From Chromatiales bacterium (GTDB taxonomy: Bacteria > Pseudomonadota > Gammaproteobacteria > Steroidobacterales > BM003), in assembly GCA_002868855.1 (NCBI GenBank), contig PKUM01000212.1, forward strand, positions 1 through 58,494: a stretch of 58,494 bases of DNA, written 5' to 3'. Below, one piece after another: positions 27,432-48,753 of this stretch. Made by a program: the position numbers and the translations under genes. A model generated the notes under the pieces. The model was not told the DNA's origin. It searched no databases and was given only the letters and a program-made list of their open reading frames with translations. The number at the start of each line of letters is the position of its first letter. The first letter of the stretch is position 1.

Positions 27432-27484
27432 AATCGTGGGATTCCCCGATACATCACGCCGACTCTTTCATTCAGGATAAACCG

Positions 27485-28300: not shown

Positions 28301-28333
28301 TCTGCTTCAACCAAACGGTCAAAGGGATTCGAG

Positions 28334-32495: not shown

Positions 32496-32610
32496 GAATC
32501 GCTTTCGTTCCCGCACTGATGCGCCCGTAACATGTTCCGGGCCAACGAATTCCCGCGCGCCGGGATCAGGCCTCGGCCTGCTCCGCCGCAAACTGACCGA
32601 TAGCGCCCCG

Positions 32611-34092
32611 GTGCGGGTCGGTGCCCTGCTCGCCAGCGCCGTGCTGGCGTGGAGTCCGGCCTCCGCCCAGGACGACACGCTCGGCGCCGGCCGCACAGTT
32701 GCCGAAAATTCGTCGGTCACGGGCCGCCCGGTCAACCAAAACACGGTTGGCGCGTTACTGGGCGGTGAGGAGCTGACCGAACGCGAGCAGCAATATGAGG
32801 AGTACCTGTTCAAGTACGAGTCGCGCGAATACGAGGAGGCACTGGAACCGGCAACCAGGGTCGTTGACCTGACGGAGCGGGAAGCCGGTCGGGATACGCC
32901 GCTGTTGATCGATCCCCTGATTAACCTGGCAACGCTTCAGAGCATGACCGATCAACCAACTGAAGCGGTGGCGAACTACCAGAGAAGCATCGAACTGATT
33001 GAGGAAAACTACAGCGAGAACGACCCGCGGCTGGTGCGGCCGTTGACCGCGCTCGGCGAGATTCACAATGCAGTTGGGCATTACGAAGAGGCAATACCTT
33101 ATCTCGAGCGTGCTCAGCACATTACCCGCCGGCATGACGGCCTTTACAATCTCGAGCAAGTCAAACAACTCGAACAAATGGCCATCAGTTATCACGGGCT
33201 GGAAGACATTCGCATGTCCGTGACCAAACAGGCTTCCGCCTATCAGATTTACCAGCGCCAGTTCGGTGCAAATTCTCCGGAGATCCTGCCCGCGCTTTAC
33301 AACCTTGCGGAGCACCTCGGCAAAATATTCTCGACTCGTGACTCCTACGACCGGGTCCGGCTGACCTGCCTGGTAGAACGTAAAGTTACCTGGGAGGCCG
33401 ACGAGAAACAGATTTGCCCGGTTCCGGGGGAGCGCGATCTGTATCGGAAAGCGGTACACATCGTCGAGGACACTTACGGGCCCGAGGATATTCGCCTCGT
33501 GGAACCGTTGGTGCGACTGGCCGAGTCGTATCGCCACAAGTCGGTCGTCAGCGTTGGCGGACAGTATGTGCGTCAGGACCCACGCGCGAAGACCTATCTG
33601 TATCGCGCGCTGGAGATCATCGACCAGAACGATGATGTCGACCCGGTGTTGCATGCCAGCGCGCTGGTAGCGCTTGGTGACTGGTACCTGCGGTTTTCGC
33701 CGGTATGGGAAAAAGGCATCCAGTATTACGACCTGGCGTGGAGGATTCTTACTCCCGACGGCTCCCGCACGCCGGAGAGCGACCGGTTTTTCAAGGATCC
33801 TCATCTCGTGTTCATGCCAGCCATCCGGCCGGCGGTCCGGCGTCAGAATGGACAATTTGCCAGCATCGGGCAACTCGGGTCGGGGTACGTTGTCGTCAGC
33901 TATGACGTCGACCCCGAGGGATGGGCGCACAACGTCGAAGTATTACAGACGGAACCCGACGACTACCGGAGACAACAGAATTATGTCGCGCGAGCAGTGA
34001 AACTGGCGCGGTTCAGGCCGACCTATAAGGAAGGACAGCGTGACTGGGCCCATAACCAGAGACTGAGACATGATTTTTTCTACATGGAATAG
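32611..34092 (+). CDS. exported TPR-like repeat protein with C-terminal TonB-C-like domain (paralog 3)
   Basis: The ORF is open from a TTG at 32446, which would overlap paralog 2 by 50 nt. The GTG at 32611 yields a clean signal peptide (M)RVGALLASAVLAWSPASA/QDD. The C-terminal domain is YVVVSYDVDPEGWAHNVEVLQTEP....AVKLARFRPTYKEGQ. The start is uncertain. Confidence 0.65.
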   Translation: MRVGALLASAVLAWSPASAQDDTLGAGRTVAENSSVTGRPVNQNTVGALLGGEELTEREQQYEEYLFKYESREYEEALEPATRVVDLTEREAGRDTPLLIDPLINLATLQSMTDQPTEAVANYQRSIELIEENYSENDPRLVRPLTALGEIHNAVGHYEEAIPYLERAQHITRRHDGLYNLEQVKQLEQMAISYHGLEDIRMSVTKQASAYQIYQRQFGANSPEILPALYNLAEHLGKIFSTRDSYDRVRLTCLVERKVTWEADEKQICPVPGERDLYRKAVHIVEDTYGPEDIRLVEPLVRLAESYRHKSVVSVGGQYVRQDPRAKTYLYRALEIIDQNDDVDPVLHASALVALGDWYLRFSPVWEKGIQYYDLAWRILTPDGSRTPESDRFFKDPHLVFMPAIRPAVRRQNGQFASIGQLGSGYVVVSYDVDPEGWAHNVEVLQTEPDDYRRQQNYVARAVKLARFRPTYKEGQRDWAHNQRLRHDFFYME

Positions 34093-34296: not shown

Positions 34297-35490
34297 ATGA
34301 CCGACAATTTCACGACAAAACTCTGCCTTGTGCTCGCCCTGGCGCTGGCGGCCGGTTGTGCCAGTCAACAGACGCAGGAACAGGAGGAGCAGGAACAGCA
34401 ATCGTCCAGCACATCTTCGAGCACCTCCGAATCCTCCAGCCCGAGCAGCGGCAGTCCCTCGCAAGCGCCCAGCGAATCCAGCACGGAAAGCCAGTCACAG
34501 AGTTCCGGAAGCGCCGAACAGGATCCCTGGAGCAACCCGCCCGAGCAGTCCGAGTCTGGCGGAGAATCGAGTGCTCAGAGCCAGAGTTCGCCCCCGCCTG
34601 GCGGCGCACCTCAGGAAAGCACCGCGCAGGAGCAAGGGGGTGCCGAAGGCGCGGAACAACAAGGCGGACAACCCCCCGGTGGCGCGGAGAGCACGGCCCA
34701 GGAACAGGGTGGTCCTCCTCCGGGCGGAGCCGATGGCGAAGCGGAACAGCAGGGCGGCGCGCAGAGCACCGCCCAGGAACAACAGGGCGGCGGCCCTGAA
34801 GGTGGCGCCGAGAGTACCGCTCAGGAGCAAGGTGGCGGCCCCGCGGGAAGCGGCGAAAGCACGGCGCAACAACAGGGCGGACAAAATCCGGGAAGCACGC
34901 CGGGCGGCAGCGCCGGCTCCGGTGGCGCGCAAGGTCCCGCAGGCGCAGTGCCTGGTGGCAACATGCCCGGGGGCGCAAGTGGCGCACCCGGAGGCTCGAA
35001 TCCGGTCAGAGTCGCGGTCATTGGCTCGCCGCAAACCGGCGACGAGCAGGTTGGAGATCTCGACCGGGTTCTTGACGGCTCAATGGTGATTTTTGACGGC
35101 CGCATCCTCGAAGAACAGCAACGAGCGCGCGATGCGCGGCGCGGCAGCGAATCCGGCGCCGAGGGCTCGGTGTACGGCGAGGAAAGCGAAGGCGGCAGCG
35201 GTGCTACCGATGTCGGCGAAGACGGTGGAATGGGCGGGGAATCCGGCGACGGCGATTCGACCATCGAAGACGGCGGACCGGCCGATACCAGCGGTTTGGA
35301 ACGACCGATGCCTCAGGGCGGTGCAGGCAAGGAAGCCACGGGTTCGGCTCCGGAAGGTATTCCCAGTGGTGACGACGACGACATCGTCGCGCGCCAGTTG
35401 CGCGAAGCCGCTGAAACCGAGAGCGATCCGGTTCTGCGCGAAAAACTCTGGGAAGAGTACCGGCGTTACAAGGAAGGCACATCGAGGTAA
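34297..35490 (+). CDS. lipoprotein with long acidic Ser/Gln/Glu/Gly-rich repeat region
   Basis: The ATG at 34297 is preceded by GAGGTG. It has a signal peptide and lipobox (LAAGC). About 210 aa of low-complexity sequence follows, then two ordered-looking islands (VLDGSMVIFDGRILEEQ and DDDIVARQLREAAETESDPVLREKLWEEYRRYKEG). Confidence 0.7.
   Translation: MTDNFTTKLCLVLALALAAGCASQQTQEQEEQEQQSSSTSSSTSESSSPSSGSPSQAPSESSTESQSQSSGSAEQDPWSNPPEQSESGGESSAQSQSSPPPGGAPQESTAQEQGGAEGAEQQGGQPPGGAESTAQEQGGPPPGGADGEAEQQGGAQSTAQEQQGGGPEGGAESTAQEQGGGPAGSGESTAQQQGGQNPGSTPGGSAGSGGAQGPAGAVPGGNMPGGASGAPGGSNPVRVAVIGSPQTGDEQVGDLDRVLDGSMVIFDGRILEEQQRARDARRGSESGAEGSVYGEESEGGSGATDVGEDGGMGGESGDGDSTIEDGGPADTSGLERPMPQGGAGKEATGSAPEGIPSGDDDDIVARQLREAAETESDPVLREKLWEEYRRYKEGTSR
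34591..34887 (+). repeat. imperfect in-frame tandem repeats encoding GG..ESTAQEQGG units
   Basis: The peptide unit (E/Q)STAQ(E/Q)Q flanked by GG/PPGG recurs five times within roughly 100 aa. The DNA copies are diverged. Confidence 0.7.
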
Positions 35491-35496
35491 TTCGAA

Positions 35497-36729
35497 ATGA
35501 GGCGACTGACACTTCTCCCACTGTACCCGGCAGCTTTGTCGCTGCTGCTTGGCGGCTGCGTTCAGGAGTCCGTTCGCTCGGTCAACTCGACCGAGGCGAT
35601 ACAGGCGGTTGAGGCGATCCCCGAAGCCCAGCTACTCGACGTTGGGGTAGCGGTTTTCGATGCCGGCATTCCCGAAGACGAGGAAAGCTGGGAAAAGCTC
35701 CGAATTTTCCCGACAGTTCGCAAGGCCGAAGCCAGGTTTATTCCACTCATCCTGCAGGACACCCTGGAGAAAACCGGCCAGTGGGGCGCGGTCTGGGTCG
35801 TTCCCTCTGACTCAAATGCAGTCGATTTGCACGTGTCCGGAAAGATCCTCTATTCGGACGGCGAAACTCTCAAGCTCGATGTCCAGGCGGTTGACTCCAC
35901 GGGACGCGAATGGCTGGACAAGACTTACGAAGGCGTGGCAAGCAAATATGCCTATGTCGAGGAACTCGAGCTCGACAGCGATCCATTCCAGAACATTTAC
36001 AACCAGATCGCGAACGACCTGGTGCTGGCGAGGCAGTCGCTGGATGCCAAGCAACTGACAGACATCCGAACGATTTCGGAGTTGCGATTTGCAACAGAAT
36101 TTTCGCCCGAGGCTTTCGACCGCCATCTGAAGGTAAACGAGAGGACCGGCGAATACACAATCAACAGTCTGCCCGCGCGTGAAGAACCAATGATGGTTCG
36201 CATGAGTAAGATCCGCGAGCGTGAGTACATGTTCTTCGACACGCTGGACGAGTATTACGACAATTTCGAACGACAGATGGGCGAGCCCTATATGGATTGG
36301 CGCGCCTACAGCTACGACGAGACTATCGCGCTACGAGAGGTCAAGGACTCGGCGCGGCGGCGGATGCTGCTTGGCGCATTGGCAGTGGTGGGCGGCCTGT
36401 ATGTCGGCAGCCAGGGCGGCAGCTACACCGAGTCGGTCATAGCGAATACCGCCGTGATCGGCGGCGGTACTCTCGCATGGTCCGGATTCAAACGCTACGG
36501 AGAATCCAAGATCCATGTTGATGCGCTGCGCGAACTCGGCACTTCACTCGAAGCGGAAGTACGCCCCGTAGTCGTCGATATTGAAGGACAAACCGTGGAG
36601 CTCTCTGGCTCCGTTGAGGCCCAGTATGCCGAATGGCGGCGTCTGTTGCGGGATATCTATGAACTCGAAACCGGGATCGAGGTCGCCAGCGACAGTGCAG
36701 CACCAGGCGACGGCACCGAGGTCAACTAA
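35497..36729 (+). CDS. lipoprotein, function unknown, with C-terminal Gly-rich hydrophobic segment
   Basis: 410-aa ORF lying 6 nt after the upstream stop and preceded by GAGGT. It has a lipobox (LLGGC) and a glycine-zipper-like segment LLGALAVVGGLYVGSQGG...AVIGGGTLAW. Confidence 0.65.
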   Translation: MRRLTLLPLYPAALSLLLGGCVQESVRSVNSTEAIQAVEAIPEAQLLDVGVAVFDAGIPEDEESWEKLRIFPTVRKAEARFIPLILQDTLEKTGQWGAVWVVPSDSNAVDLHVSGKILYSDGETLKLDVQAVDSTGREWLDKTYEGVASKYAYVEELELDSDPFQNIYNQIANDLVLARQSLDAKQLTDIRTISELRFATEFSPEAFDRHLKVNERTGEYTINSLPAREEPMMVRMSKIREREYMFFDTLDEYYDNFERQMGEPYMDWRAYSYDETIALREVKDSARRRMLLGALAVVGGLYVGSQGGSYTESVIANTAVIGGGTLAWSGFKRYGESKIHVDALRELGTSLEAEVRPVVVDIEGQTVELSGSVEAQYAEWRRLLRDIYELETGIEVASDSAAPGDGTEVN

Positions 36730-36748
36730 ACAAAAGCAACACAGACCC

Positions 36749-38593
36749 ATGCGCGACCTCCGCCCCGACCAGATAGTGTTTGGCCGGTACACCCTTCTCC
36801 GGCCATTGCGCAGCGGCGCCCGCCATCCCGCATGGCTGGCAACGGACTCCCGTTCCGGTAAGCAAATCGGACTCTGGATATTGCCCGCTGCGGCACTCAC
36901 ACCCGATCTTGAAGCGCAACTGCACCAGGGAATCGCTGCGGCCGAGACAATTGGCGAACCCGAAATGGCCGGCATCGCGCTGGCGCAGTTGAATCCAGCT
37001 CAATTCTCGCGCGATGGCGCGCAGCTAGAGAGACTGATCGAACAATTCGCCGACGACAGTCTCGACATCGAGGCCGAGGAATTCGAGTCGATCGAACCGC
37101 TGAATTTCAGTAGTGCGGCCACTACGGCTCCCGTCGAATCGGAACACCGCAGTACGGTGTCGAAACCCGTAATCATTACGTTGTTTGCAGTCAGTATCAT
37201 TATTGCCTTCGGCGTAATTTTTTACCTCCCGGACCTGGTAAAACCACCGCCGCCGGAACAGACCGCGGCAACGCCCGAGACCAGCCAACGGGCAGCGCCA
37301 GCGACCGCGGCAAGAAGCGAACCGGAAGCACCTAAAGAACTGGCGCCGTGGCAGCGCGCCCAGATTCTGAAACAGAAAGAAGCAGCGGAAGCAGTTCTCG
37401 AGGAGTTCATCCGCAAGCAGTTCGATCTGGAAGAAAGCAATGTGACCGCATGGGCGGAAACCGAGTTCAACGCCGCCAAGGAACATGCACGCACCGGGGA
37501 CGGTCACTTCAGCATTCGCGAGTACGAGGCCGCGCAGCAGTCTTACCAGGCCGGGCTCGATCAACTTCTTGCACTGGAGGCTCTGGCCCCCGTGTTGTTG
37601 AGCGCGGCGCTTACGCGCGGCCAGGAGGCGCTCGACAGTTTTGATTCCGCCACGGCCACCGAAGCTTTTACCGCGGCGCTGGCGCTCGATCCCGATAACG
37701 CTACCGCAACTGCCGGCCTGCGCCGGGCCGAATCGCTGGACGCGGTTGAACGACTGCTGGCTGAGGCCCGCAGAGCCGAGAGTCGCGGCGAGTTCGCGGT
37801 TGCGCGCGATGCCTTTCGCGAGGCGCTGGCTCTCGATGCCGCGGCGAGCGAGGCAACAGAGGGACTCGACCGCGTGACAGCACGTCTCGCCAGCGATCAA
37901 TTCTCGGTACTGATGTCGCAGGGCTATGCGGCATTGTCGGCGGGACAATTGCAACAGGCAGACTCCGCTTTCAAGCGCGCGCGTCAACTCAAACCGGGGT
38001 CGCCCGAGGTGGCGGAAGCCCTGGCGCAAACCGATATGCAACGCCGATTGACCCGGATTGCCAGCTTGCGCAGCGAAGCGGAAAGATTCGAGAGCGAAGA
38101 GAATTGGCCGCAGGCACTGGATCGCTACGAGAAAGCGCTGGCGCTGGACGCAAATCTGGCGTTCGCAAAACGTGGCCGTTCGCGCAGCCAGGAACGGGCC
38201 GAGCTGGACAAGCGCCTCACCGAATACCTGGCGGCGCCGGCGCGCTTGTCCACTGACGCAGTCTATGCAGCCGCCGAGCAACTCATGTCGGTTGCCACCA
38301 CTGTCGAGCCGCGCGGACCGAAACTAACCGCGCAAATCCAGCAAATGCAGCAGGCAATGTCGGTCGCGCGAGTCCCGGTGACGGTGCGTTTCGAATCCGA
38401 CAATCAGACCGAAGTTACGTTGTTTCGAATCGGACAGCTCGGGAGTTTCGACGCGCGCGACATCGAGCTACGGCCCGGCACCTATACGGTAGTGGGAACA
38501 CGCTCCGGGTTCCGCGACGTGAGACAGCAATTTACGGTCGTTGCCGGCCAGCCCGCCGGTCCGGTCATCGTACGCTGCGAGGAGAAGATTTGA
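36749..38593 (+). CDS. bitopic membrane protein: short cytoplasmic N-domain, one TM, periplasmic TPR repeats, C-terminal PEGA-like beta domain
   Basis: The ATG at 36749 lies 19 nt after the upstream stop (ORF open from 36581). The TM segment is VIITLFAVSIIIAFGVIFYL. TPR-type repeats are present (ALALDPDN, ALALDAAA, ARQLKPGS, ALALDANL). The C-terminal part is VTVRFESDNQTEVTLF....LRPGTYTVVGTRSGF. Confidence 0.65.
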   Translation: MRDLRPDQIVFGRYTLLRPLRSGARHPAWLATDSRSGKQIGLWILPAAALTPDLEAQLHQGIAAAETIGEPEMAGIALAQLNPAQFSRDGAQLERLIEQFADDSLDIEAEEFESIEPLNFSSAATTAPVESEHRSTVSKPVIITLFAVSIIIAFGVIFYLPDLVKPPPPEQTAATPETSQRAAPATAARSEPEAPKELAPWQRAQILKQKEAAEAVLEEFIRKQFDLEESNVTAWAETEFNAAKEHARTGDGHFSIREYEAAQQSYQAGLDQLLALEALAPVLLSAALTRGQEALDSFDSATATEAFTAALALDPDNATATAGLRRAESLDAVERLLAEARRAESRGEFAVARDAFREALALDAAASEATEGLDRVTARLASDQFSVLMSQGYAALSAGQLQQADSAFKRARQLKPGSPEVAEALAQTDMQRRLTRIASLRSEAERFESEENWPQALDRYEKALALDANLAFAKRGRSRSQERAELDKRLTEYLAAPARLSTDAVYAAAEQLMSVATTVEPRGPKLTAQIQQMQQAMSVARVPVTVRFESDNQTEVTLFRIGQLGSFDARDIELRPGTYTVVGTRSGFRDVRQQFTVVAGQPAGPVIVRCEEKI

Positions 38594-40995
38594 CCGCCTC
38601 AGTCCGCCTCGTCGATGGAGAAACCAGCGAGCGCTATCAGGCAACGCGGCGGGTTGGCATCGGCGGTGCGGATGCCGAAGTGCCGTGGCCGGGCGCCGCC
38701 CACGGCGAGACCCTCGCCTACCTCGAATACACGAAAGCTGGCTGGGTAATGACCCCGGCCGGCGATGCGCTCATCCTGCGTAACGATTCGAACCTGGAAG
38801 AACCGGTTCTGGTCGCAGTCGGCGACACACTCGAACACGAGTCGAGGATTCTGGTTGTTCGCAAGACCGGGCCGGAGCTGGTGCTGGAAACGGAAACCGC
38901 GGACGACGTCATTGCAATGGACTTCTCGAGTGGCGGTGACGTTGAATCCGAGGGCGAGCTGATCGAGGCCGCCGTATTTGCGCCGTCCGAGCGCCGCACA
39001 CGAGGTTGGCGCAGCGTGCTGCGACCGGTGCCGCTACTGGTATTTGCGATTTTTGTCGTACTCGGCAGCGTAGCCTGGTTTATGCTCACCGCGCGCACCG
39101 TCGAATTACAGGTGGAGCCCGTCGCCGAGGAAATCGAGATTGACGGAGGGCTCTACGTTTTTGAACTTGGCGGTCGGTATTTGTTACGGCCTGGCGACTA
39201 TCGTCTGCATATGGCGCGCGAGGGCTATTACGACTTCGACGAAATTTTGAGCGTCGGCGAGGAACGCAACCAGTTCTTCGAGTTTGAACTGAAAAAACTG
39301 CCCGGTATTTTGCACCTTACGACAGAGCCTGGCGACGGTGTGCGGGTCTCGGTAAACGGGGAGATTGTCGGCACGACACCGATCGAGCCGCTGACGATCG
39401 AACCGGGCCCGCACGAGTTCACGCTCGATGCCGAACGATTCGATTCCTACAGCGTACAGGTCGAGATCGAGGGAGGTGGCGCGGAACAGTTCCTGGAGGC
39501 GAAACTTGAACCGCTCTGGGCCAGCGTCGCGATCAACAGCGAGCCGATCGGCGCAGAAGTACTCGTAGATGGCGAAGCAGTCGGTGTCACACCTATTAGC
39601 GCCGACATACTGGAGGGCGTACGCGAGGTACAGGTATCCCTGCCCGGCTACAAATCCTATAACGAAGAAATCGACGTCGTGCGCTCGGTTCCGCAAACTC
39701 TCGAGACCATCGTTCTTGAGCAGGCCGATGGTCTTGTCAGTCTGCGCAGCAGACCATCGGGGGCCAGCATTATGGTAAACGGCGCCTACCGCGGGCAGAC
39801 CCCGTCGGAGCTCGAACTTGCGCCCGGTATCACATATCGCATCGAATTCAGCAAGGCCGGATTTCAGAAAGTCACCCGCAACGTCAAACCCGAATCGGGC
39901 ACAAGCCGCCAGGTGGATGTGTCCCTGAAACCGTTTGTCGGAGAAATAAGTATCGTCGCCGATCCCGCCGATGCCGAGGTCCTTATAAACGGAAAGGTTC
40001 GCAGCGAACGGCGCCTGACGCTGCCCGCCGTGCCGCAACAGATAGAGATTCGCAAGCCCGGATTTGCGTCCTACCGAATTACCGTTACGCCGCGACCCGG
40101 GTTCCCGCAGGAAGTGTCAACTCGGCTGAAAACAGAAGCACAGGCCCGCGCCGACTCCCGGCCGAGACGTATAAAGACCGCCGCCGGTCCGGAACTCATA
40201 CTTGTTACTCCGGGTCGATTGAGTATGGGATCATCGCGACGTGAGCAGGGACGGCGTTCCAACGAGAGCCTGAGGCAGGTCGAACTGGTGCGCGCGTTCT
40301 ATTTTGGCGTACAGGAGGTCAGTAACGAGCAGTTTCGACAGTTTGCCGAGCAGCATAATTCGGGGGCGTTCGAGGGTGTCGATCTGAACCGGCCCGACCA
40401 TCCCGTCTCGGGTATAACATGGCAACAGGCGGCGGCATTCTGCAACTGGCTGAGCGAGCGCGACGGGCTTCCGGCAGCATACGTAGACCGCGGCGGCGTG
40501 CTGGTCGCTGCGGAACCGATGAACCACGGGTACCGGTTACCCACAGAGGCGGAATGGGCGTGGACCGGGCGCCAGGTTGCGGGTCGCGGCAGCGGTCGTT
40601 TTCCATGGGGCGATGACTGGCCTCCCCCGCCGGCTCCAAAAACCGGAAATTACGCTGACGAGTCGGCGCGCAGATTGTTCAACGACTACATCAAGGGCTA
40701 CAACGACGGGTATGCCGGGAGCTCTCCGGTCGGCAGTTTCGGCGCATCGCCCATCGGTCTGTTCGACATGGGCGGCAACGTGGCAGAATGGATTCACGAT
40801 CTGTACACCACCTACCCCTCGGCCGGTGCAAACCTCGAACGCGATCCGATGGGGCCATTGGACGGCAAGTTTCACGTTATCCGCGGCTCCAGCTGGCGAC
40901 ATGCAACAATCAGCGAATTGCGCTGGGCATACAGGGATTATGGAGAGGAAGCCCGACCCGACGTCGGCTTCAGACTCGCCAGGTACGCCGAGTAG
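38590..40995 (+). CDS. FHA-like / TM / PEGA-repeat / FGE-sulfatase-domain (SUMF1/PvdO-like) protein
   Basis: 801-aa ORF. The TTG start overlaps the upstream TGA and is preceded by GAGGAG. The TM segment is VPLLVFAIFVVLGSVAWFML. About five PEGA-like repeats follow (e.g. INSEPIGAEVLVDGEAVGVTP). The C-terminal part carries RLPTEAEWAW, GNVAEWIHD, VIRGSSWRH and VGFRLARY. Confidence 0.75.
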   Translation: MTASVRLVDGETSERYQATRRVGIGGADAEVPWPGAAHGETLAYLEYTKAGWVMTPAGDALILRNDSNLEEPVLVAVGDTLEHESRILVVRKTGPELVLETETADDVIAMDFSSGGDVESEGELIEAAVFAPSERRTRGWRSVLRPVPLLVFAIFVVLGSVAWFMLTARTVELQVEPVAEEIEIDGGLYVFELGGRYLLRPGDYRLHMAREGYYDFDEILSVGEERNQFFEFELKKLPGILHLTTEPGDGVRVSVNGEIVGTTPIEPLTIEPGPHEFTLDAERFDSYSVQVEIEGGGAEQFLEAKLEPLWASVAINSEPIGAEVLVDGEAVGVTPISADILEGVREVQVSLPGYKSYNEEIDVVRSVPQTLETIVLEQADGLVSLRSRPSGASIMVNGAYRGQTPSELELAPGITYRIEFSKAGFQKVTRNVKPESGTSRQVDVSLKPFVGEISIVADPADAEVLINGKVRSERRLTLPAVPQQIEIRKPGFASYRITVTPRPGFPQEVSTRLKTEAQARADSRPRRIKTAAGPELILVTPGRLSMGSSRREQGRRSNESLRQVELVRAFYFGVQEVSNEQFRQFAEQHNSGAFEGVDLNRPDHPVSGITWQQAAAFCNWLSERDGLPAAYVDRGGVLVAAEPMNHGYRLPTEAEWAWTGRQVAGRGSGRFPWGDDWPPPPAPKTGNYADESARRLFNDYIKGYNDGYAGSSPVGSFGASPIGLFDMGGNVAEWIHDLYTTYPSAGANLERDPMGPLDGKFHVIRGSSWRHATISELRWAYRDYGEEARPDVGFRLARYAE

Positions 40996-41009
40996 TCATG
41001 GAGCATCGA

Positions 41010-41261
41010 ATGAAAGAACTCGCTGTCGCTATCTTAATTCTCGGGCTGGGCGCATCAATGGCGCAAGCCCAGGATGAGGCACAGGAAACAGAGTCCGCCC
41101 CCGCTGCCGAGACGAGCGAAAATGCGGCGGAGACAACCGAAGCTCCGCCTGCCAGAGCCGAAGAAACCCAAACAGAATCGCGACGTGGCAGGCCGCAAAA
41201 ATTCGAGCCTTCCGAGGAAATCTCGGAAGATTTGTCCGTCTCGTTTCCTGTCGATATCTAG
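41010..41261 (+). CDS. small secreted acidic protein
   Basis: The ATG at 41010 is preceded by GGAG (alternative ATG at 40998). It has a signal peptide MKELAVAILILGLGASMAQA/QD. The mature part is Glu/Thr/Ala-rich and ends in SVSFPVDI. Confidence 0.55.
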   Translation: MKELAVAILILGLGASMAQAQDEAQETESAPAAETSENAAETTEAPPARAEETQTESRRGRPQKFEPSEEISEDLSVSFPVDI

Positions 41262-41282: not shown

Positions 41283-42083
41283 ATGGTAAAAAAGCAATTC
41301 CCTTTCGAGTTTACCTATCAGGTTTTCGCCCTGATCGTCGCGATAATCATCGTGCATGCGATATATGTCGCCGTCGTGCGCCCGAATGCTGAAGCGGTTC
41401 TTACCTATCAGGCCGAAATGATGGCGCAGGACAGCGACTATGTTGCCGATCGTTCGGTATGGGTCCTGATCAGGGATTTCGAACAGGAGTCGTGCTTTAT
41501 CCTGTTGTTTTGGGCGATGGCAATAATGGCCTACAAAGCGGTACTCGCCGTCCGTGAACGCGCCCTGCTGCAACAGGACCTCTTGCATATAACGGAGGGT
41601 ATGAGCGTGTTGCCGGAAGACACCCGGGAACTGTCGCGCCCGTTACAGGCGCTTCCGGACAAGGATCGGGAGAGTCTACTGCCGCGTGCGCTGCTTACCG
41701 CCCTGCACCGATTTCGTTCCACCCGGAATATTCAGGATACGTCTGACGCAGTTCGTTCGGTGTGCGAAGGTGAGTCGGAGCGTCTCGACTCCGAGCTTTC
41801 AATGGTCAGGTACATCGCGTGGGCGATACCGTCGGTCGGCTTTATTGGCACGGTCCGCGGTATTGGCGAGGCGCTTGGCCAGGCGCACAAGGCCGTCGAA
41901 GGCGACATCGCCGGTGTCACGGCCAGCCTCGGTGTAGCATTCAACTCCACGTTTATCGCTTTGATCCTGAGTATCGTGCTGATGTTCCTGCTGCACCAGC
42001 TGCAATTGCAACAGGAAAGACTCGTGCTCAAAACTCAGGATTATTGCGACGAACATCTGTTGCGCCACCTACAGGTACGCTAA
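41283..42083 (+). CDS. MotA/TolQ/ExbB-family proton-channel protein (divergent)
   Basis: 266-aa ORF with three TM segments. The family signature is in the TM2-TM3 region (YIAWAIPSVGFIGTVRGIGEALG ... GVAFNSTFIALILSIVLMFLL). Confidence 0.75.
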   Translation: MVKKQFPFEFTYQVFALIVAIIIVHAIYVAVVRPNAEAVLTYQAEMMAQDSDYVADRSVWVLIRDFEQESCFILLFWAMAIMAYKAVLAVRERALLQQDLLHITEGMSVLPEDTRELSRPLQALPDKDRESLLPRALLTALHRFRSTRNIQDTSDAVRSVCEGESERLDSELSMVRYIAWAIPSVGFIGTVRGIGEALGQAHKAVEGDIAGVTASLGVAFNSTFIALILSIVLMFLLHQLQLQQERLVLKTQDYCDEHLLRHLQVR

Positions 42084-42086
42084 CTG

Positions 42087-43493
42087 ATGACAGCCGTCCT
42101 CGAAATCAACGACATCGGATTGCTGCTCAGCCTCGATGCCGAGCCCATTTTCGAGTCGCCCGGCTATGCGATGCTGGATGACAGGGAAATTGTCGTCGGC
42201 GCTGATGCGCTGGCTCAGTCGCGCCTGCAGCCCAACCGGATCCAGAACCGGTTTTGGGACCAGCTGAGCATGGAGGAACTGCCCAAGCCGATGGGCCAAG
42301 CGCGCAACTATGCCGATCTCGCTTACGCTCACCTGAAAAGCTTGAGTAGCCGCCTGCTGGCCGAAGGCGAACGCAAGGTCATATTTTCCGTTCCGGGAAC
42401 CTACGACCGTCAACAACTGGCATTGCTGCTCGGAATGGCCAAGGAGTGCGGTCTCGACGTGGTCGGGCTCGTGGATACCGCAGTCGCCGCATCGCCGCAT
42501 GCGGTACCGGGTCACAACCTGTATTTTCTGGATATCTTCCTGCATCGCACGATACTGACGGAATTGCAGCAGGGCGTGCGGCTCAAACGCACCCGCGTCG
42601 ACGTCCTCGGCAATATTGGCATGTCGACACTCAATGACCGTTGGGCAAACCGAATTGCCGATCTGTTCGTTTCGGAGACGCGCTTCGACCCGATGCATGT
42701 CGCCCAGACCGAACAGGTTCTTTACGATCACCTGGGTGGATGGCTGCGCGAACTGGACAGCGTCGGCGCGGCAGAACTGGAATTGCCGACCGGCCGTAAA
42801 TCCTACCAGGTGACAGCCAAGCGAGAGCGCGTGCTCGAGGCGACCAATGCGCACTTTCGCCAGATCGCCGAACAGATCAACACCCGGATCGGCAGCAATG
42901 GTCCGGTCGCGTTGCAAATTTCGCATCGCGTAGCCGCCCTTCCCGGCTTGAGTAAAGAACTGGAACAGCAAATCGATTGCCAGATAATCGAACTCGAACG
43001 CGAGGCCGCCGCGCGAGGAGCGGTGCGCCATGGAGAACACCTAGTCCAGGGCGGCAAGGGAGTCCGGTTCGTGACCAGCGTGCCATGGTCGCTGGACTCC
43101 GCGTCGCCAATATCCACCACAACTCCCGGACCCGATCCCACGAGCACGGCGCAGACCGCCGTGCCTGCAGCAGCGGCATCACCACTTCCGCCACCTTCGC
43201 CGCCGCGGCCGCGACTGCCAAGTCATGCGGTGGTACATGGCATTGCCCATCCGTTGAACCGTCACGATACCCGGCTCGACGCACTGATAGGCCTGCCGGC
43301 CGGCTCTGATGCCGCAACGATTACGCTGCGTGTAGTGGAGGACGGCGTGCTGGTAGACCCTGGCACGGCACAACTGCACCACAAACGACGCCAATTAGAT
43401 GGCGTCGCCGTATTCGGGATCGGCGATCGGATTACGTTGCCCGACGGAGAGGAATTGCTGCTGATCGAAGTAGCCGGAGAAAATGGCTCGTAA
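42087..43493 (+). CDS. Hsp70/actin-fold (ASKHA) protein with degenerate nucleotide loops, Pro-rich linker and FHA-like C-terminal domain
   Basis: 468-aa ORF. The block FSVPGTYDRQQLALLLGMAKECGLDVVGLVDTAVAAS parallels DnaK [37 protein letters not shown]. The phosphate-1 and phosphate-2 loops are not conserved. A Pro/Ser/Thr/Ala-rich linker precedes a C-terminal beta-rich domain. Confidence 0.6.
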   Translation: MTAVLEINDIGLLLSLDAEPIFESPGYAMLDDREIVVGADALAQSRLQPNRIQNRFWDQLSMEELPKPMGQARNYADLAYAHLKSLSSRLLAEGERKVIFSVPGTYDRQQLALLLGMAKECGLDVVGLVDTAVAASPHAVPGHNLYFLDIFLHRTILTELQQGVRLKRTRVDVLGNIGMSTLNDRWANRIADLFVSETRFDPMHVAQTEQVLYDHLGGWLRELDSVGAAELELPTGRKSYQVTAKRERVLEATNAHFRQIAEQINTRIGSNGPVALQISHRVAALPGLSKELEQQIDCQIIELEREAAARGAVRHGEHLVQGGKGVRFVTSVPWSLDSASPISTTTPGPDPTSTAQTAVPAAAASPLPPPSPPRPRLPSHAVVHGIAHPLNRHDTRLDALIGLPAGSDAATITLRVVEDGVLVDPGTAQLHHKRRQLDGVAVFGIGDRITLPDGEELLLIEVAGENGS

Positions 43494-44580
43494 GAAACGA
43501 CAAACCAATGTTTTCAGCCTGTCCTTTCTGGACTGCATGTCATGTGGTTTTGGCGCCGTCGTTCTGTTCTTCATGATAATAAATCACGCCACCGAGGTTC
43601 GCTCGGACGAAGTCAATGAGAAACTCCTTGCCGAAGTCAGCCTGCTCGAGCGCCAGGTACTGGACGGCGAGCGCCATAAGGTCGAGTTGCGAAATTCAAT
43701 TGACGAGGTCGACAAGGAGTCCGCAATTACAGAAGGACTGTCGGCACAGGTATTGAGCGACCTCGAGGTCATTCAGGAACAACTCGCCGATCTGGATGCA
43801 TTGACGGTCGCACAACGCGAGCATATCAACAAGCTCAAGTCCGATCTGAAAACGATTGATGAAGAGAAGAAACGGCTGGAGGGTGCGCGCGCAAGCGAGG
43901 ATGATGAGGGCGGTGCGACGCGCTCGTTCGTCGGTCAGGGCGACCGCCAGTATCTTACCGGCCTCAAAGTCGGCGGTGAGCGAATACTGATCCTGGTTGA
44001 TGGTTCCGCCAGCATGCTCGATTCCAGCATTGTCAACATTATCCGCCGCCGCAACATGTCCGACCCCGAGAAACTCAAAGCGCGCAAATGGCAACGGACC
44101 ATCAATGCCGTCGACTGGCTGAGCACGCAGATTCCGGTGGAGAGCAAATTCCAGATTTACACATTCAATACGGGCGTGCAGGCGTCCATACCGGATACGC
44201 TCGGTGACTGGGTCGAAGTGGATTCGGGTCGCAATCTGAACGCCGCAATCGATGGGGTCAAAAGCCATGTTCCGGCGGGCGGAACCAGCCTCCATGCCGC
44301 TTTTGCCGCGGCACGCGCTCTGAAACCCATGCCCGACAATATTTATTTGCTTACCGATAGTTTGCCGACGCAGGGTGCTTCGGCGCCGCGGCGCACCACC
44401 GTCAACGGCAAAAACCGGATCAAACACTTCGAGGAAGCTGTCGCAACGTTGCCCCTGGGCATACCCGTCAACATCATTCTGCTGCCCATGGAAGGTGACC
44501 CGATGGCGTCAGCGGCGTTCTGGCAACTTGCACAAGTCACGGGAGGGTCATTCATGAGCCCATCCAAGGACTGGCCGTAA
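43483..44580 (+). CDS. ExbD/TolR-like TM anchor + coiled coil + vWA-domain protein (paralog 1)
   Basis: 365-aa ORF overlapping the upstream gene by 11 nt. It has a basic N-terminus, a TM helix FSLSFLDCMSCGFGAVVLFFMI with an embedded Asp, about 100 aa of heptad-like sequence, and a vWA domain with the MIDAS motif LILVDGSASM. Confidence 0.75.
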   Translation: MARKKRQTNVFSLSFLDCMSCGFGAVVLFFMIINHATEVRSDEVNEKLLAEVSLLERQVLDGERHKVELRNSIDEVDKESAITEGLSAQVLSDLEVIQEQLADLDALTVAQREHINKLKSDLKTIDEEKKRLEGARASEDDEGGATRSFVGQGDRQYLTGLKVGGERILILVDGSASMLDSSIVNIIRRRNMSDPEKLKARKWQRTINAVDWLSTQIPVESKFQIYTFNTGVQASIPDTLGDWVEVDSGRNLNAAIDGVKSHVPAGGTSLHAAFAAARALKPMPDNIYLLTDSLPTQGASAPRRTTVNGKNRIKHFEEAVATLPLGIPVNIILLPMEGDPMASAAFWQLAQVTGGSFMSPSKDWP

Positions 44581-44592
44581 GGTGAGGACAAA

Positions 44593-45621
44593 ATGAAGAA
44601 AAAGGGACGCAGGGACGTCGAGGCCTTCAGCATGTCTTTTCTCGATGCAATCTGTTGCGGTTTTGGCGCTATCGTGCTGTTGCTCGTGCTGTCAAAGACC
44701 GCGGAACCTTTTATTCTCGAAGAGACGACGCAGGAACTCGAGGCATTGATAGCCAACCTGCAGGAACAGCTTTATGAGATCCGTGGCGAGACCACGGTCA
44801 TGAACCGGACCATGGTTACACGCAAAGACCAATTGGCGGCGGAAAAGGAAAAACTCGCCCGGTTGCAGGGAGATCTGTCAAATATCCGCGGCGAATTCGA
44901 AGCCTCGCGCGACGCTTCCGACATTGCCGAGGTCATCGAAGGCCGGCTTGCCACCGCGCGTCAGAGCCTGTCGGCGGAGATGCAGAGACTGCTCGGCGAG
45001 AATTTCCGCCGCAAGCCGAAGGACCAGACTGTCGGTGGCATACCGGTAGACAGCGAATACATCATTTTTATTATCGACACATCGGGGAGTATGGTTAATT
45101 ACGGCTGGGATCTCATGATGCAGAAGGTAGAGGAAACCCTGCAGGTCTATCCCAATGTGAAAGGCATTCAGGTCATGAATGACATGGGTGACTACATGTT
45201 CAGCCGCTACGCCGGAAAATGGATCCCCGACACGCCCGCCAGGCGCAAGGCAATCATGACTCAGCTCAAATCGTGGACACCGTTTTCCAATTCAAGCCCG
45301 GTGGAAGGAATCACCAAGGCTATCCGTACATTCTATTCTCCGGAAAAGAAAATCAGCCTCTACGTGCTCGGCGACGAGTTCACCGGCGGATCGATTGAGC
45401 GGGTCATCGACACCATCGACCGCATCAATCGCGAAGACGACAAGGGCAACAGACTGGTACGCATCCACTCGATCGGATTTCCGGTTACGTTCCAGCGCGG
45501 CGCCGCGCTGGCAACTACAGGCACCCGCTTTGCCACACTGATGCGAATCCTGTGCGAAAAGAACGGCGGCACCTTTGTCGGACTCAATACGTTTGAACCT
45601 GAGTCGCACTACGGACTCTGA
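44593..45621 (+). CDS. ExbD/TolR-like TM anchor + coiled coil + vWA-domain protein (paralog 2)
   Basis: 342-aa ORF preceded by GGTGAGGA. It has a TM helix FSMSFLDAICCGFGAIVLLLVL, a coiled coil, and a vWA domain with the MIDAS motif FIIDTSGSM. Confidence 0.75.
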   Translation: MKKKGRRDVEAFSMSFLDAICCGFGAIVLLLVLSKTAEPFILEETTQELEALIANLQEQLYEIRGETTVMNRTMVTRKDQLAAEKEKLARLQGDLSNIRGEFEASRDASDIAEVIEGRLATARQSLSAEMQRLLGENFRRKPKDQTVGGIPVDSEYIIFIIDTSGSMVNYGWDLMMQKVEETLQVYPNVKGIQVMNDMGDYMFSRYAGKWIPDTPARRKAIMTQLKSWTPFSNSSPVEGITKAIRTFYSPEKKISLYVLGDEFTGGSIERVIDTIDRINREDDKGNRLVRIHSIGFPVTFQRGAALATTGTRFATLMRILCEKNGGTFVGLNTFEPESHYGL

Positions 45622-45627
45622 CCATAT

Positions 45628-46287
45628 ATGGGCGCAATGAAAAAGACCAACAACAGACACTTCATCCGGCCTCGCCCGAGCGCAATTCGAACACTGCCAG
45701 TCCTGGTGCTGGTAGCGCTAAGTGCCTGTACTCACAGCGTACCGGTCGATACCGAATTCCCGGAGCCGCTGATTGCGCCAATGCCGGTCGCGGTTGCTGT
45801 ATATTACGACGAGAGTCTCATCGACTTCGAACACACCGAGTTCATCGAGCAGGGCTCGGACTGGAAAGTAAAGCTGGGCGATGCCAACCTCAAGATGTTC
45901 GAACGCCTGTTCGGGTCGATGTTTGAGAATCTCGTACCGGTCGCATCGCCGGAAGCCGGTTTTGCCGAAGGAAGCAGATTCGAGGCAATAATCATTCCGG
46001 CGATCGAGGAAATGCAGGTCGCTCCGCCACGCTACGGAGAGTCAGAATTTTTCGAGGCCTGGATCCAGTATCGGGTCGAAGCATTCCACCCGAACCGGGA
46101 ACCGATCGTCAACTGGCTGGTGAGCGGGTACGGACGAAGCGAAGGATCGATGCTGCAACCGTCAAAGTCGTTGCAGGAAGCCACCGTTCTTGCCATGCGC
46201 GATGCGGCGGCCAATATCGTCATCAAGTTCAGGCAGCAACCACGCATTCGGGAGTGGCTTGACCAACAGGAAGGCGCCAATGAATAA
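45628..46287 (+). CDS. lipoprotein, function unknown
   Basis: 219-aa ORF lying 6 nt after the upstream stop. It has a signal peptide and lipobox (LSAC). Confidence 0.6.
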   Translation: MGAMKKTNNRHFIRPRPSAIRTLPVLVLVALSACTHSVPVDTEFPEPLIAPMPVAVAVYYDESLIDFEHTEFIEQGSDWKVKLGDANLKMFERLFGSMFENLVPVASPEAGFAEGSRFEAIIIPAIEEMQVAPPRYGESEFFEAWIQYRVEAFHPNREPIVNWLVSGYGRSEGSMLQPSKSLQEATVLAMRDAAANIVIKFRQQPRIREWLDQQEGANE

Positions 46288-46984
46288 GACACCTGGCATG
46301 CATTCGAGGGGCTACGGTATTCGTTTTGGAGCAATCTCTGTTGTTGTCCCGGTTACTCTGTTGCTGGCCGCAAGCGGCTGTGTCAATTCGAGAATCGAGC
46401 AGGTCCGACAAGGTTCGACCGTTTTGCAGGACGGTGAGGCCATCGTAATTCTCGCGCGTCGCCATGATCATGCCGGTGAGACCGAGTCGAGCTTTACCGA
46501 CTGTATAGAGGACAAGCTCGCCAAGGGTGACTCACCACTGAACGTACATCCGAACAAGGAGTTCATCGATGCGATGTTCCCCTGGTTCGAGCCAAGTGTG
46601 GCGCCTCTTTCTACCGACTCTCTGCCGCAATTGCTGGCCCACCCGGGAGTACGCGACAAGATCGAGCAAACCGGCGTACGCTATGTTGTCTGGCTGGACG
46701 GCAGTACCGAAAGGATCGACAGTGGCGGCAGCATGACCTGCGCAATCAGTCCCACCGGTGGCGGTTGCCTCGGTTTTGGCTGGTGGGAAGATGCCTCGGA
46801 TTACGAGGCAACCGTTTGGGATCTGAAGAGCTCGAGCGCCGCGGGGATGGTCAGCGCGGACGTCAGCGGCACGTCGTACATGCCTGCTTTCGTCGTGCCG
46901 ATCCCGCTCATAGCACGCACCCAGTCGGCCGCGTGTAGCGGTCTGGCACGTCAGCTCAGTCTTTTTCTCGCGCAGGCGCCCTAG
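46280..46984 (+). CDS. lipoprotein, function unknown
   Basis: The ATG at 46280 overlaps the upstream stop by 8 nt (ORF open from 46190). It has a lipobox (LAASGC). Confidence 0.6.
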   Translation: MNKTPGMHSRGYGIRFGAISVVVPVTLLLAASGCVNSRIEQVRQGSTVLQDGEAIVILARRHDHAGETESSFTDCIEDKLAKGDSPLNVHPNKEFIDAMFPWFEPSVAPLSTDSLPQLLAHPGVRDKIEQTGVRYVVWLDGSTERIDSGGSMTCAISPTGGGCLGFGWWEDASDYEATVWDLKSSSAAGMVSADVSGTSYMPAFVVPIPLIARTQSAACSGLARQLSLFLAQAP

Positions 46985-47006: not shown

Positions 47007-48482
47007 TTATTCGATGACCTTGAAAAGCTGGCCCGTCGCAGGTTGATCGTGCGGCCCCAGGTCGTTCAGCAGGCGCAGCTGCTGCTCTACATAACCAGAT
47101 AAGGCGGAACGCCGCGCCAAGACTTCGATTGTAGTCCCCGGACCGATTTCGATCACTCTTACCGCAATCGGCCGCGTCAATGGACGCTCATTCCGCTTAA
47201 GATCGTCGAAGCTGAAAATGGTCGAAATGAACTCTCTGTCTGCAGCGATCTTTGACAGATCCTTGCGCCCTGCCCCGGAAAAAACGAAGGCCTTGCCTTT
47301 GCGTTGATCGAAAATTACCGCCGTGCGGACAGGTCGGGGACCGTAAGGCGAAGGTGCCCGCTCGGCAATTGCAATATAGGCCGGCTTGCCGGCAATTGTC
47401 AGCGCCTTGCCATCTTCGAGATTTTCCAGGCCGAGCTTGCCACGCATGAACTGTTCCGGCGACGTGCCGTCACGCGGCATTGGCAAACTGCGGACGTGAA
47501 GCGTGGCCTGATCACCCGGGGAGTGCGATACGATGGCACTCTGCGCCGACTCGACCCGCCAACCTTCCGGAAACGTGATCTTCATTCGCAGGCCGGCGTG
47601 ATAGAGCTTGTTACCGCGGATTACACCACCGGCTGCGCTTTTCCCCCACAACAGTCCATTGATGCGTTTCAGATATTCGTCGCGCCGAACCATATCCGGA
47701 CTGCCAAAGCCAACTTCGCTTGCCGCGTCAATTGCTTCGCTGAGGCGCGTGTCGTTGTCGGGGTGACTGGCAAACCAGCCGTGGTAGACCCTTGGCTCGC
47801 GCCCTTCGAGTCGCGCCCGTTCCAGTTCGAACTGTTCGCGACGCTTTAAAATATCAATCACTTCCAGCATGGACTGCGGCGGATAGTCTGTCTTCGCCAG
47901 GTATCGCGCTCCCAGGGAGTCCGCCTCGAGCTCCATGCCACGGCCATAACCACTCAGCAGCACACCACCGAACATATTCGTGAGATCGCCGGCGCCCCCG
48001 GTTCCCGTCGCGACGCTTGCAGCCGTGCTGACCGCGCCAACAACTTTGTTCTTGCTGTCCTGGCGAACTGCATGGCGGCCGGTTACATGACCTATTTCAT
48101 GACCTATGACCGCGGCAAGCTCGGCCTCCGAGTTCAGGTACGCCATCATGCCACGAGTGATGTAGATGAAACCGCCCGGGATCGCGAAGGCATTTACCGC
48201 ATCGTCATCAACCAGGGTAAATGTCCATTTCAGATTTGGACGTTCACTGACTGACGCAAGTCGCTGGCCGATGCTGTTCACGTAGTCCTGCAGATCCGGG
48301 TCCGGATAGACCCTGAATTGTTTCATCACTTGTTCATGCGAGGTCTCCCCGAGCTCAATTTCGGACTCTTCCGACATCAGCACGAAATCGACACCGCCGG
48401 TCGCCGGGTTACTGGCACAACCAGCAAGCCAGAGCGAAACGCCAACGATTCCGAGCAAGTTCACTGAATAAAGCATTTTCAT
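47007..48482 (-). CDS. M48-family zinc metalloprotease lipoprotein (possible C-terminal LysM-like segment)
   Basis: The ATG at 48482 gives MKMLYSVNLLGIVGVSLWLAGC, a lipobox. The zinc motif is HEIGHVTGRH. The last roughly 50 aa loosely follow a LysM pattern. Confidence 0.8.
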   Translation of the reverse strand: MKMLYSVNLLGIVGVSLWLAGCASNPATGGVDFVLMSEESEIELGETSHEQVMKQFRVYPDPDLQDYVNSIGQRLASVSERPNLKWTFTLVDDDAVNAFAIPGGFIYITRGMMAYLNSEAELAAVIGHEIGHVTGRHAVRQDSKNKVVGAVSTAASVATGTGGAGDLTNMFGGVLLSGYGRGMELEADSLGARYLAKTDYPPQSMLEVIDILKRREQFELERARLEGREPRVYHGWFASHPDNDTRLSEAIDAASEVGFGSPDMVRRDEYLKRINGLLWGKSAAGGVIRGNKLYHAGLRMKITFPEGWRVESAQSAIVSHSPGDQATLHVRSLPMPRDGTSPEQFMRGKLGLENLEDGKALTIAGKPAYIAIAERAPSPYGPRPVRTAVIFDQRKGKAFVFSGAGRKDLSKIAADREFISTIFSFDDLKRNERPLTRPIAVRVIEIGPGTTIEVLARRSALSGYVEQQLRLLNDLGPHDQPATGQLFKVIE

Positions 48483-48753
48483 TGCCAGTGGTCCTCTGCA
48501 CTCAACTGTCGCACCGGGGCGACTTTTACGGATTCGATTATATAGACAAGCCGCAAGGAAAATTGATCCTGTCATTTTCGAGAAGATTGGTGCGAAATTC
48601 TCGTGCCACTATCGCGAAAGCTCCGGCCGCGTTCCAGTCTGCGCTCGAGACCGGTGGGAGACACTAGACAGGTCAAACGGGGCCTGCACCGAGGCCACCG
48701 GGTTGGCGCTGCGGACAACGAGAGCATGGAGGCGGATCAGCACTCTTCCCTGC

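Follow-up and report, generated by a model that had tools for sequence, protein, structure and literature searches.

The stretch of DNA analyzed here, referred to below as the window, is contig PKUM01000212.1 (GCA_002868855.1), 58,494 nucleotides long, and all positions are given on its forward strand. From ca. 29.5 to 47 kb it carries a run of genes on the same strand, within which lie the three genes that are the main subject of this work. One of them (41283..42083, plus strand) codes for a TolQ/ExbB-like channel subunit of 266 amino acids (aa), presumed to be the pentameric part of a motor. The other two, also on the plus strand, code for a pair of vWA proteins, A (43483..44580, 365 aa) and B (44593..45621, 342 aa), in which a membrane helix with an Asp is followed by a stalk and a vWA domain. 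A first-pass annotation, made from the sequence alone, had read these genes as a motor in which the two vWA proteins form the axle; what it had observed was confirmed, and its interpretation was partly supported. We compared the window with 83 related loci, which include L004-L083, the best 80 from a scan of one genome per species, all of these 80 being fairly close orthologs with at least 48% identity to paralog A. The scan confirmed at least 593 species genomes from its first 600 matches, and the best 80 loci belong to Gammaproteobacteria (Steroidobacter, Halieaceae, Lysobacterales and Pseudomonadales), Acidobacteriota and Desulfobacterales.

The channel subunit was recognized by its Pfam family, its predicted structure and its conservation. 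It matches MotA_ExbB (PF01618) with an E value of 1e-14 and 54.8 bits (cut-off, 22.9) over residues 134-251, and both peptides that had been quoted as a MotA_ExbB signature do fall within the last two of its hydrophobic helices. Four such helices are predicted, i.e., one more at the N-terminus than in TolQ or ExbB. The AlphaFold2 model (pLDDT 88.5, pTM 0.80) has an ExbB/TolQ-type helical fold; Foldseek ranks ExbB and TolQ first (probability 1.0, TM-score 0.55-0.69), whereas ZorA, MotA and PomA score lower (TM-score 0.31-0.50). However, the NCBIfam equivalog models of TolQ and ExbB give scores far under their cut-offs, so the protein is neither TolQ nor ExbB proper. The pore of ExbB is lined by two threonines, T148 and T181. 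A gap-free alignment with Escherichia coli TolQ places T190 of the channel subunit on TolQ T145 and T223 on TolQ T178, and both residues are invariant in 76 of 76 loci. In TolQ these are established as the pore threonines around the TolR Asp, and they are treated as such in PMC12204202.

Paralog A begins with a basic N-terminus (MARKKRQ) and a trans-pore-type membrane helix, SFLDCMSCGFGAVVLFF, that carries D17; the helix extends to residue 133 and is followed by a linker and the vWA domain. Paralog B repeats this plan, with N-terminus MKKKGRR, membrane helix SFLDAICCGFGAIVLLL carrying D18, a stalk of heptad type and a vWA domain that has diverged. Both membrane helices have the motif S-F-L-D…C-G-F-G, with a Cys at D+4 and G-x-G after it. 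The two basic N-termini are present as first described, and the positions that had been given for the Asp codons (43531-43533 in A, 44644-44646 in B) and for the first Asp of VDGSAS at 43999 agree with the starts of the open reading frames (ORFs). The two proteins are true paralogs, as had been assumed, by BLASTP (E of 5e-13 over the first 181 aa) and by profile-profile comparison (probability 99.5%, E of 1.8e-22, 318 columns). Their identity reaches 57% across the membrane helix and 23% elsewhere, which is the opposite of the pattern of a generic anchor. An alignment of orthologs, which the first-pass annotation had put forward as a check on the Asp and the Cys, showed D17 in 83 of 83 copies of A and D18 in 80 of 80 copies of B, with C21 kept in 82/83 and C22 in 78/80. 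Equally invariant are G24, D173, S175, S177, T268 and D292 in A (all 83/83) and G25, D162, S164, S166 and D261 in B (all 80/80). Beyond these orthologs, a search of 1.84 billion cluster representatives returned 3,235 relatives of the vWA proteins at E values up to 1e-3 and 566 at up to 1e-30; among divergent relatives sampled at E values of 1e-70 to 1e-87, the motif F-[LM]-D…C-G, including the Asp, was kept in 15 of 15.

Most of these invariant residues belong to the metal-ion-dependent adhesion site (MIDAS), which in A consists of D173/S175/S177/T268/D292. The corresponding metal-ligand positions of B are D162/S164/S166, an invariant Ser replacing the MIDAS Thr, and D261. Paralog A passes the Pfam threshold for VWA_2 narrowly (27.9 bits, cut-off 27), while B remains under it (15.8 bits), and the profile of B matched coiled-coil proteins in the PDB and no vWA chain. 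Its vWA label is based on full-length homology to A and on the fact that its D-x-S-x-S, S and D do not vary. The earlier description of a vWA domain with a complete MIDAS start in both proteins thus holds for the D-x-S-x-S motif, invariant in each, but Pfam and the PDB do not by themselves support a vWA fold in B. In the AlphaFold2 model of A (pLDDT 78), one unbroken helix spans residues 10-133, a disordered linker of low confidence covers 135-158, and residues 160-365 fold into a compact domain that Foldseek matches to the solved vWA domains of CLCA1, BatB, ITIH1, LapA (vWFA) and others with E values of 6e-8 to 1e-5. The hydrophobic periodicity of both stalks peaks at 3.5 residues, which, together with the modeled helix, bears out the heptad-like stalk of ca. 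100 aa that had been noticed in the sequence. The spacing between helix Asp and MIDAS Asp is nearly fixed, 151-158 residues in A (156 in 59 of 83) and 141-146 in B. As had also been inferred, what follows the membrane helix is a vWA domain on a coiled coil and not an ExbD-type or peptidoglycan-binding domain. Paralog A has in addition a conserved basic insertion beside the MIDAS loop (residues 181-205, IVNIIRRRNM…K…KWQR), absent from B.

Several features of the membrane helix recall the B subunits of ion-driven motors. The net charge is +4 (A) and +3 (B) on its N side and -2 and -3, respectively, on its C side, which predicts an orientation with the N-terminus in the cytoplasm, and D17 and D18 are found ca. 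7 residues into the hydrophobic segment, near its cytoplasmic end, as in TolR. There is no His inside the hydrophobic segment of either protein, nor the SHLS motif of TonB and TolA. No conventional B subunit was detected nearby. TolR and ExbD of E. coli, searched against 10,004 ORFs of at least 70 aa from the 83 loci and the window, gave nothing at E values up to 1, nor did TolR when searched again up to 10, while an ExbD sequence spiked into the same file as a positive control was found at 1.5e-13. MotB gave two weak matches among the ORFs of the 83 loci and the window, each in a single locus, so that no conserved MotB is present. The precomputed Pfam tables of four loci contain no ExbD or OmpA family, and no TolR/ExbD-type subunit lies within 10 kb in the 83 loci.

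The channel and the vWA pair are part of a larger conserved module. In those loci with enough flanking sequence, the order of nine genes is fixed: acidic lipoprotein, 410-aa lipoprotein, kinase/TPR protein, PEGA/FGE-sulfatase protein, small peptide, channel subunit, Hsp70-like/FHA protein, A and B. Paralogs A and B occur together in 76 of 76 loci, and the channel gene is adjacent to them in 74 of 74. Directly before the channel gene lies a gene for a small secreted acidic protein (41010..41261, plus strand, 83 aa; a start at 40998 would make it 87 aa), which belongs to no Pfam family and is annotated elsewhere only as “hypothetical protein.” Its signal peptide is followed by a linker, variable and for the most part acidic, and the last 19 residues before the stop codon are FEPSEEISEDLSVSFPVDI. 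The motif F-x-P-[ST]-E-x-[IVL]-x-x-D-x-x-[VI]-[SA]-F-P-x-D-I-stop was found just 5' of the channel gene in 76 of 76 loci, and 73 of the 76 copies end at most 120 nucleotides from the channel start, the other three being placed slightly differently. Elsewhere in the loci there was one more match, at the end of L071 and on its minus strand. With a profile of the C-terminal 44 residues, 213 proteins were recovered (E up to 1), all of them unnamed and without a Pfam family; the context of two was looked up independently, and both are in the same module. The small peptide is a core component of the module. It has acidic residues that never vary and a carboxy-terminus that is fixed, both of which a MIDAS ligand would require, and, judging from these sequence features, it is the best candidate for that ligand. 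The basic insertion of paralog A could complement its acidic character. The acidic low-complexity lipoprotein encoded first in the module (34297..35490, plus strand, 48 of 50 loci) had been suggested as an alternative source of the carboxylate that completes the MIDAS, but its acidic repeats are not conserved; what is conserved is its C-terminal part of ca. 50 aa, plus a middle segment in some loci.

Upstream of the small peptide, a gene present in 64 of 64 loci (38590..40995, plus strand) codes for an 801-aa protein in which an FHA-like N-terminus and a membrane helix (residues 140-171) precede four PEGA domains and a domain with the FGE-sulfatase fold. The Pfam scores are 150.6 bits for PEGA and 141.2 bits for FGE-sulfatase, and the NCBIfam GldK model matches with an E value of 1.6e-29, which is under its cut-off. 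We consider this protein a candidate for a periplasmic partner. Its residues 1-140 look like a divergent FHA or YscD-type domain, and in two orthologs there were weak matches to the FHA profile of the module itself. The 410-aa lipoprotein (35497..36729, plus strand) is conserved in 52 of 53 loci, and a profile search of Pfam, NCBIfam and the PDB gave no usable match to it.

The two remaining genes of the module make up a signaling layer that differs among lineages. The kinase/TPR protein (36581..38593, plus strand, 58 of 58 loci) retains in the window the N-lobe of a Ser/Thr kinase, one membrane helix and a putative periplasmic TPR region; Pfam detects only TPR in it, while a jackhmmer kinase profile matches ca. 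75 residues. Orthologs in many lineages have a full Pkinase domain (e.g., L001, L002 and L088). Between the channel gene and paralog A, 70 of 75 loci have a gene for a cytoplasmic protein with an Hsp70-like nucleotide-binding domain and a C-terminal FHA domain (42087..43493, plus strand, 468 aa). A profile of its orthologs matched FHA (EmbR, 5e-5) and Hsp70 nucleotide-binding domains (SSB1, 4.9e-4; DnaK, 2.4e-3) in the PDB. Pfam FHA is matched by 25 of 38 orthologs but not by the copy in the window, whose FHA tail lacks the S-R-x-H and S-x-x-G-x-x-x-N signatures of the phosphothreonine pocket. In five loci (L056, L062, L064, L070 and L077) the gene is absent and the channel gene abuts paralog A. 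We scored the upstream protein with the jackhmmer profile as having a full kinase domain, an N-lobe remnant or none. A full kinase was accompanied by a canonical FHA pocket in 24 loci; in another 7 a full-length kinase domain, mostly without H-R-D/D-F-G, was found with a degenerate (6) or half-degenerate (1) pocket. Where the kinase was a remnant or missing, the pocket was degenerate in 21 loci, half preserved in 3 and canonical in 2. In 4 loci both the kinase and the FHA gene were absent (these are among the five FHA-less loci; the other, L064, is cut off at the upstream protein). Judged by these signatures, intact kinase and intact FHA pocket co-occur across lineages, and both are degenerate in the window. 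Conservation of the channel and of the A/B pair is the same whether or not this layer is intact, so phospho-control is accessory to the core. It should be mentioned that the channel subunit has an invariant H-R-F-R-S-T-R-N-I (residues 143-150) at the turn between the two long cytoplasmic helices of its model, in which T147-x-x-I150 is similar to the FHA-binding motif pT-x-x-I (pT, phosphothreonine). However, this stretch may be structural, because it is invariant in kinase-less lineages too.

Both ends of the gene run are more variable. At its head are genes for three secreted TPR proteins that are paralogs of one another and share a TonB C-terminal-like domain (29480-30940, 30933-32495 and 32446-34092, plus strand; Pfam TPR_12 and TonB_C, PF03544). 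The TonB_C score is 35 bits for the second of them (cut-off, 24.6) and under the cut-off for the other two. Such genes were found near the module in 17-19 of the 83 loci, and the trio is a lineage-specific accessory. A promoter-like site is located directly 5' of it (29311-29339), though such sites are no commoner here than in shuffled sequence. Unrelated metabolic genes (26460-29323) bound the module on its left; they code for a PaaX-like regulator (minus strand), an enoyl-CoA hydratase and a zinc alcohol dehydrogenase. Downstream of paralog B, two lipoprotein-like genes (45628..46984, plus strand; 219 and 264 aa) without a family in Pfam or NCBIfam are present in 27 of 71 and 17 of 68 loci, respectively, and are likewise a lineage-specific accessory. 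The gene that follows the module, on the opposite (minus) strand, codes for an M48-family peptidase (47007-48575); an M48-family peptidase gene is also found directly downstream of the module in Halioxenophilus aromaticivorans (L087, 13927-15462), there on the same strand.

As to distribution, a homolog search with paralog A returned at least 7,964 proteins and one with the channel subunit at least 8,000. Among the matches listed for the latter, identity is ca. 70% across 120 protein clusters, which include Gammaproteobacteria and a member of the Verrucomicrobia. The window itself is ca. 95% identical to uncultured gammaproteobacterial genomes, and nearly identical proteins carry a Chromatiales label. 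Cultured carriers include Steroidobacter agaridevorans, Peristeroidobacter agariperforans, Parahaliea mediterranea and Halioxenophilus aromaticivorans. A blastn search of plasmid sequences with both vWA genes gave no match.

A family with the same core has already been described (Mol Biol Evol 2025, msaf138; PMC12204202). The section illustrated by its Fig. 4c-d presents a “second family” of vWA proteins with trans-pore helices, encoded beside tolQ-like genes. According to that section, these proteins co-occur tightly with tolQ homologs, mostly as heterologous pairs and without syntenic tolR or exbD, and their trans-pore helix, similar to that of TolR/ExbD, contains a conserved Asp and lacks the SHLS motif with its His. 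In AlphaFold 3 models the Thr ring of the pentamer encloses their Asp pair; the reference species is Idiomarina loihiensis, and the function of the family is stated to be unknown. Every feature that can be compared with that description is matched by the locus studied here, i.e., the vWA pair, the tolQ-like neighbor, the absence of tolR, exbD or motB, and the Asp in the helix. The architecture is therefore not novel: the first-pass annotation had known of no characterized stator of this kind, and both the architecture and the inference drawn from it were in print in 2025. Its central idea, a vWA heterodimer as the axle of a 5:2-type motor, is sound but not new. What appear to be new are the nine-gene synteny, the peptide motif and the co-variation of kinase and FHA. 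In the text of PMC12204202 on the family, “kinase” does not occur, “FHA” appears only within FhaC and no small peptide is mentioned, whereas the module described here has all of them. Our literature searches for the full module turned up this paper alone, and no later work on the family.

Taken together, these data suggest that the locus probably codes for a proton-driven complex of the 5:2 type, by analogy with the solved motors of this class, in which an A/B heterodimer serves as the axle, a coiled coil of fixed length as the shaft, and two MIDAS heads hold an acidic ligand in the periplasm. The channel would be of the TolQ/ExbB type and conduct protons, and its inner dimer would be the A/B heterodimer instead of TolR, ExbD or MotB, each axle protein contributing a trans-pore helix, a coiled coil of ca. 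100 residues and a vWA domain. We infer complex formation and its stoichiometry from the solved motors, in which case T190 and T223 from each of five channel subunits would form a ring around D17 and D18. The flow of protons would make the dimer turn or stroke against the pentamer, and the coiled coil, with the topology predicted above, would extend ca. 15 nm into the periplasm and transmit the movement to the two vWA heads. These, with their intact MIDAS, may grip an acidic ligand there, preferably the small secreted peptide encoded upstream, by its invariant acidic C-terminal motif. Such a motor would be the core of the conserved nine-gene envelope module, which in most lineages may be under the control of the Ser/Thr kinase and FHA proteins, a control that seems to have decayed in the window.

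Several observations weigh against this interpretation. The resemblance of the A/B helix to that of ExbD and TolR, pointed out in the first-pass annotation, stands for position and chemistry but not for sequence: Pfam ExbD (PF02472) has no match to A or B at E values up to 0.1, a profile of the helix retrieved no TolR, ExbD or MotB chain from the PDB, and hhalign, although it places D17 on D23 of E. coli TolR, gives a probability of 1.6%, which is not significant. Because the match in position and chemistry comes without sequence support, we file A and B as B-subunit-like proteins outside the ExbD/TolR family. (The sole PDB match of the helix profile, NDUFB4, was discarded as a chance match to CGFG.) Since the genome-scan loci are all close orthologs, the synteny counts describe one clade. 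In addition, the first MIDAS motif is altered in some of the divergent relatives (E-x-S-G-G-M or R-A-S-G-S-M, e.g., P0490, P0494, P0498, P0468 and P0477), so metal-dependent binding may not be universal. Finally, the likeness to the family of PMC12204202 is one of described features, and the genes studied here are at best presumed orthologs of its Idiomarina loihiensis reference. The five divergent proteins just named keep the helix Asp, have short extensions after a C-terminal W-P, and may represent a third subfamily.

Other explanations have to be considered. The same complex might work as a gated proton channel or a mechanosensor and not as a rotary machine, with ligand or tension at the vWA heads gating protons or signaling to the kinase and FHA proteins. 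The co-variation of a whole signaling layer across lineages (the kinase, two FHA-type domains and the Hsp70-like protein) would fit such a sensor, but in the many lineages, the window included, where the kinase/FHA layer is lost or degenerate, high conservation persists in the channel and the A/B pair, and the solved homologous complexes are all described as 5:2 motors; we regard a sensor as unlikely, though it is the chief alternative. A simpler possibility is that A and B are ordinary anchored proteins of the periplasm, adhesion or scaffold proteins of the BatA/BatB type, and that the MotA-like protein pairs with a TolR/ExbD-type partner encoded elsewhere. The vWA domain of BatB is indeed among the fold matches of paralog A, and the helix shows no significant similarity to TolR or ExbD. 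Yet generic anchors are unconserved, whereas here the helix, with its invariant buried Asp, is the most conserved part common to A and B; moreover, the pair always adjoins the channel gene, and no B-type subunit was found within 10 kb in the 83 loci, all of which makes plain anchors rather improbable.

Linked genes for a kinase, an FHA protein and vWA proteins also recall cytoplasmic signaling modules such as ArnA-ArnB or the vWA-STK-FHA-PP2C operons, in which case the vWA domains would face the cytoplasm. We give this very little credit: N-termini with charges of +3 to +4 and acidic flanks after the helix predict an N-in, C-out orientation, most other proteins of the module have signal peptides, lipoboxes or periplasmic domains, the Pfam tables of four loci show no PP2C gene in the module, and the vWA pair persists where kinase and FHA have been lost. 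The use of a MotA-like motor raises, lastly, the question of an antiphage defense system similar to Zorya, and weak partial matches to ZorA were obtained (PADLOC, E of 0.003-0.018; NCBIfam ZorA_4, E of 0.043). They are, however, confined to the shared channel helices, and neither the ZorA tail, nor the peptidoglycan-binding domain of ZorB, nor an effector of the ZorC/D type was found. Across phyla, both the order of the genes and their sequences are strongly conserved (ca. 70% identity for the channel), unlike the patchy distribution typical of defense islands. Defense, for which PADLOC gave nothing beyond the weak ZorA matches and coiled-coil noise from LmuB, was rejected as the main explanation, and of all those considered here it is the least probable.

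With the A/B motor as the preferred interpretation, the locus can be placed among known machines. The TolQ-TolR-TolA and ExbB-ExbD-TonB systems have the same fold in the channel and both pore threonines, and in their B subunits, too, an Asp lies toward the cytoplasmic end of an N-in helix. Nevertheless, A and B lack the periplasmic domain of TolR and ExbD as well as any detectable sequence similarity to them, no third subunit of the TolA/TonB type is evident at the locus, where the output domain is fused to the axle via the coiled coil, and the Tol/Ton channels do not have the extra N-terminal helix. GldLM and PorLM of type 9 secretion and gliding resemble it by analogy, through an inner dimer that reaches far across the periplasm and a partner with the FGE-sulfatase fold (GldK/GldJ). 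No homologs of GldL, GldM or GldN were found here, and GldK and GldJ are outer-membrane lipoproteins, whereas the FGE-fold protein of the module appears to be anchored in the inner membrane and carries its domain on PEGA repeats. MotAB/PomAB and ZorAB have in common with the locus the channel family and the Asp-bearing helix of the B subunit; their structural similarity is much lower, and the locus has neither an OmpA-like peptidoglycan-binding domain nor partners of the flagellar or Zorya kind, and we identified no plug helix. For the control layer, a parallel is PpkA-Fha1 of the Pseudomonas H1 type 6 secretion system, an envelope machine controlled by a kinase and an FHA protein. There too, a membrane Ser/Thr kinase with a periplasmic sensor and a cytoplasmic FHA protein are encoded in the operon of a membrane machine, but the module has no type 6 secretion genes, its FHA domain is fused to an Hsp70-like domain, and the layer is dispensable in many lineages. 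Other vWA systems have been described by Kaur et al. 2020 (PMC7159879).

A broader and more tentative interpretation, possible but rather doubtful, is that the channel and the vWA pair are the core of an undescribed trans-envelope machine, complete with a peptide ligand, a PEGA/FGE-sulfatase partner, lipoproteins and a clutch made of the kinase, FHA and Hsp70-like proteins. In such a machine the MIDAS sites would capture the peptide by its F-P-x-D-I carboxy-terminus, perhaps aided by the basic insertion of A, while the PEGA/FGE-sulfatase partner may reside in the inner membrane and the eukaryote-like clutch on the cytoplasmic face. These accessory parts (peptide, PEGA/FGE protein, lipoproteins and kinase/FHA/Hsp70-like proteins) are absent from the section of PMC12204202 devoted to the family. 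The findings at the level of the module make the system experimentally approachable, with the two Asp, the two Thr, the MIDAS sites, the 19-residue motif of the peptide and the natural variants with and without a kinase as handles. The 5:2 ion-driven motors known so far fall into only a few functional classes, and, if the broader interpretation were true, the module would add a further one to the flagellar, Ton/Tol, gliding/type 9 and Zorya motors. An adhesion domain placed on the axle would be a new way to couple membrane energy to the periplasm or the outer membrane.

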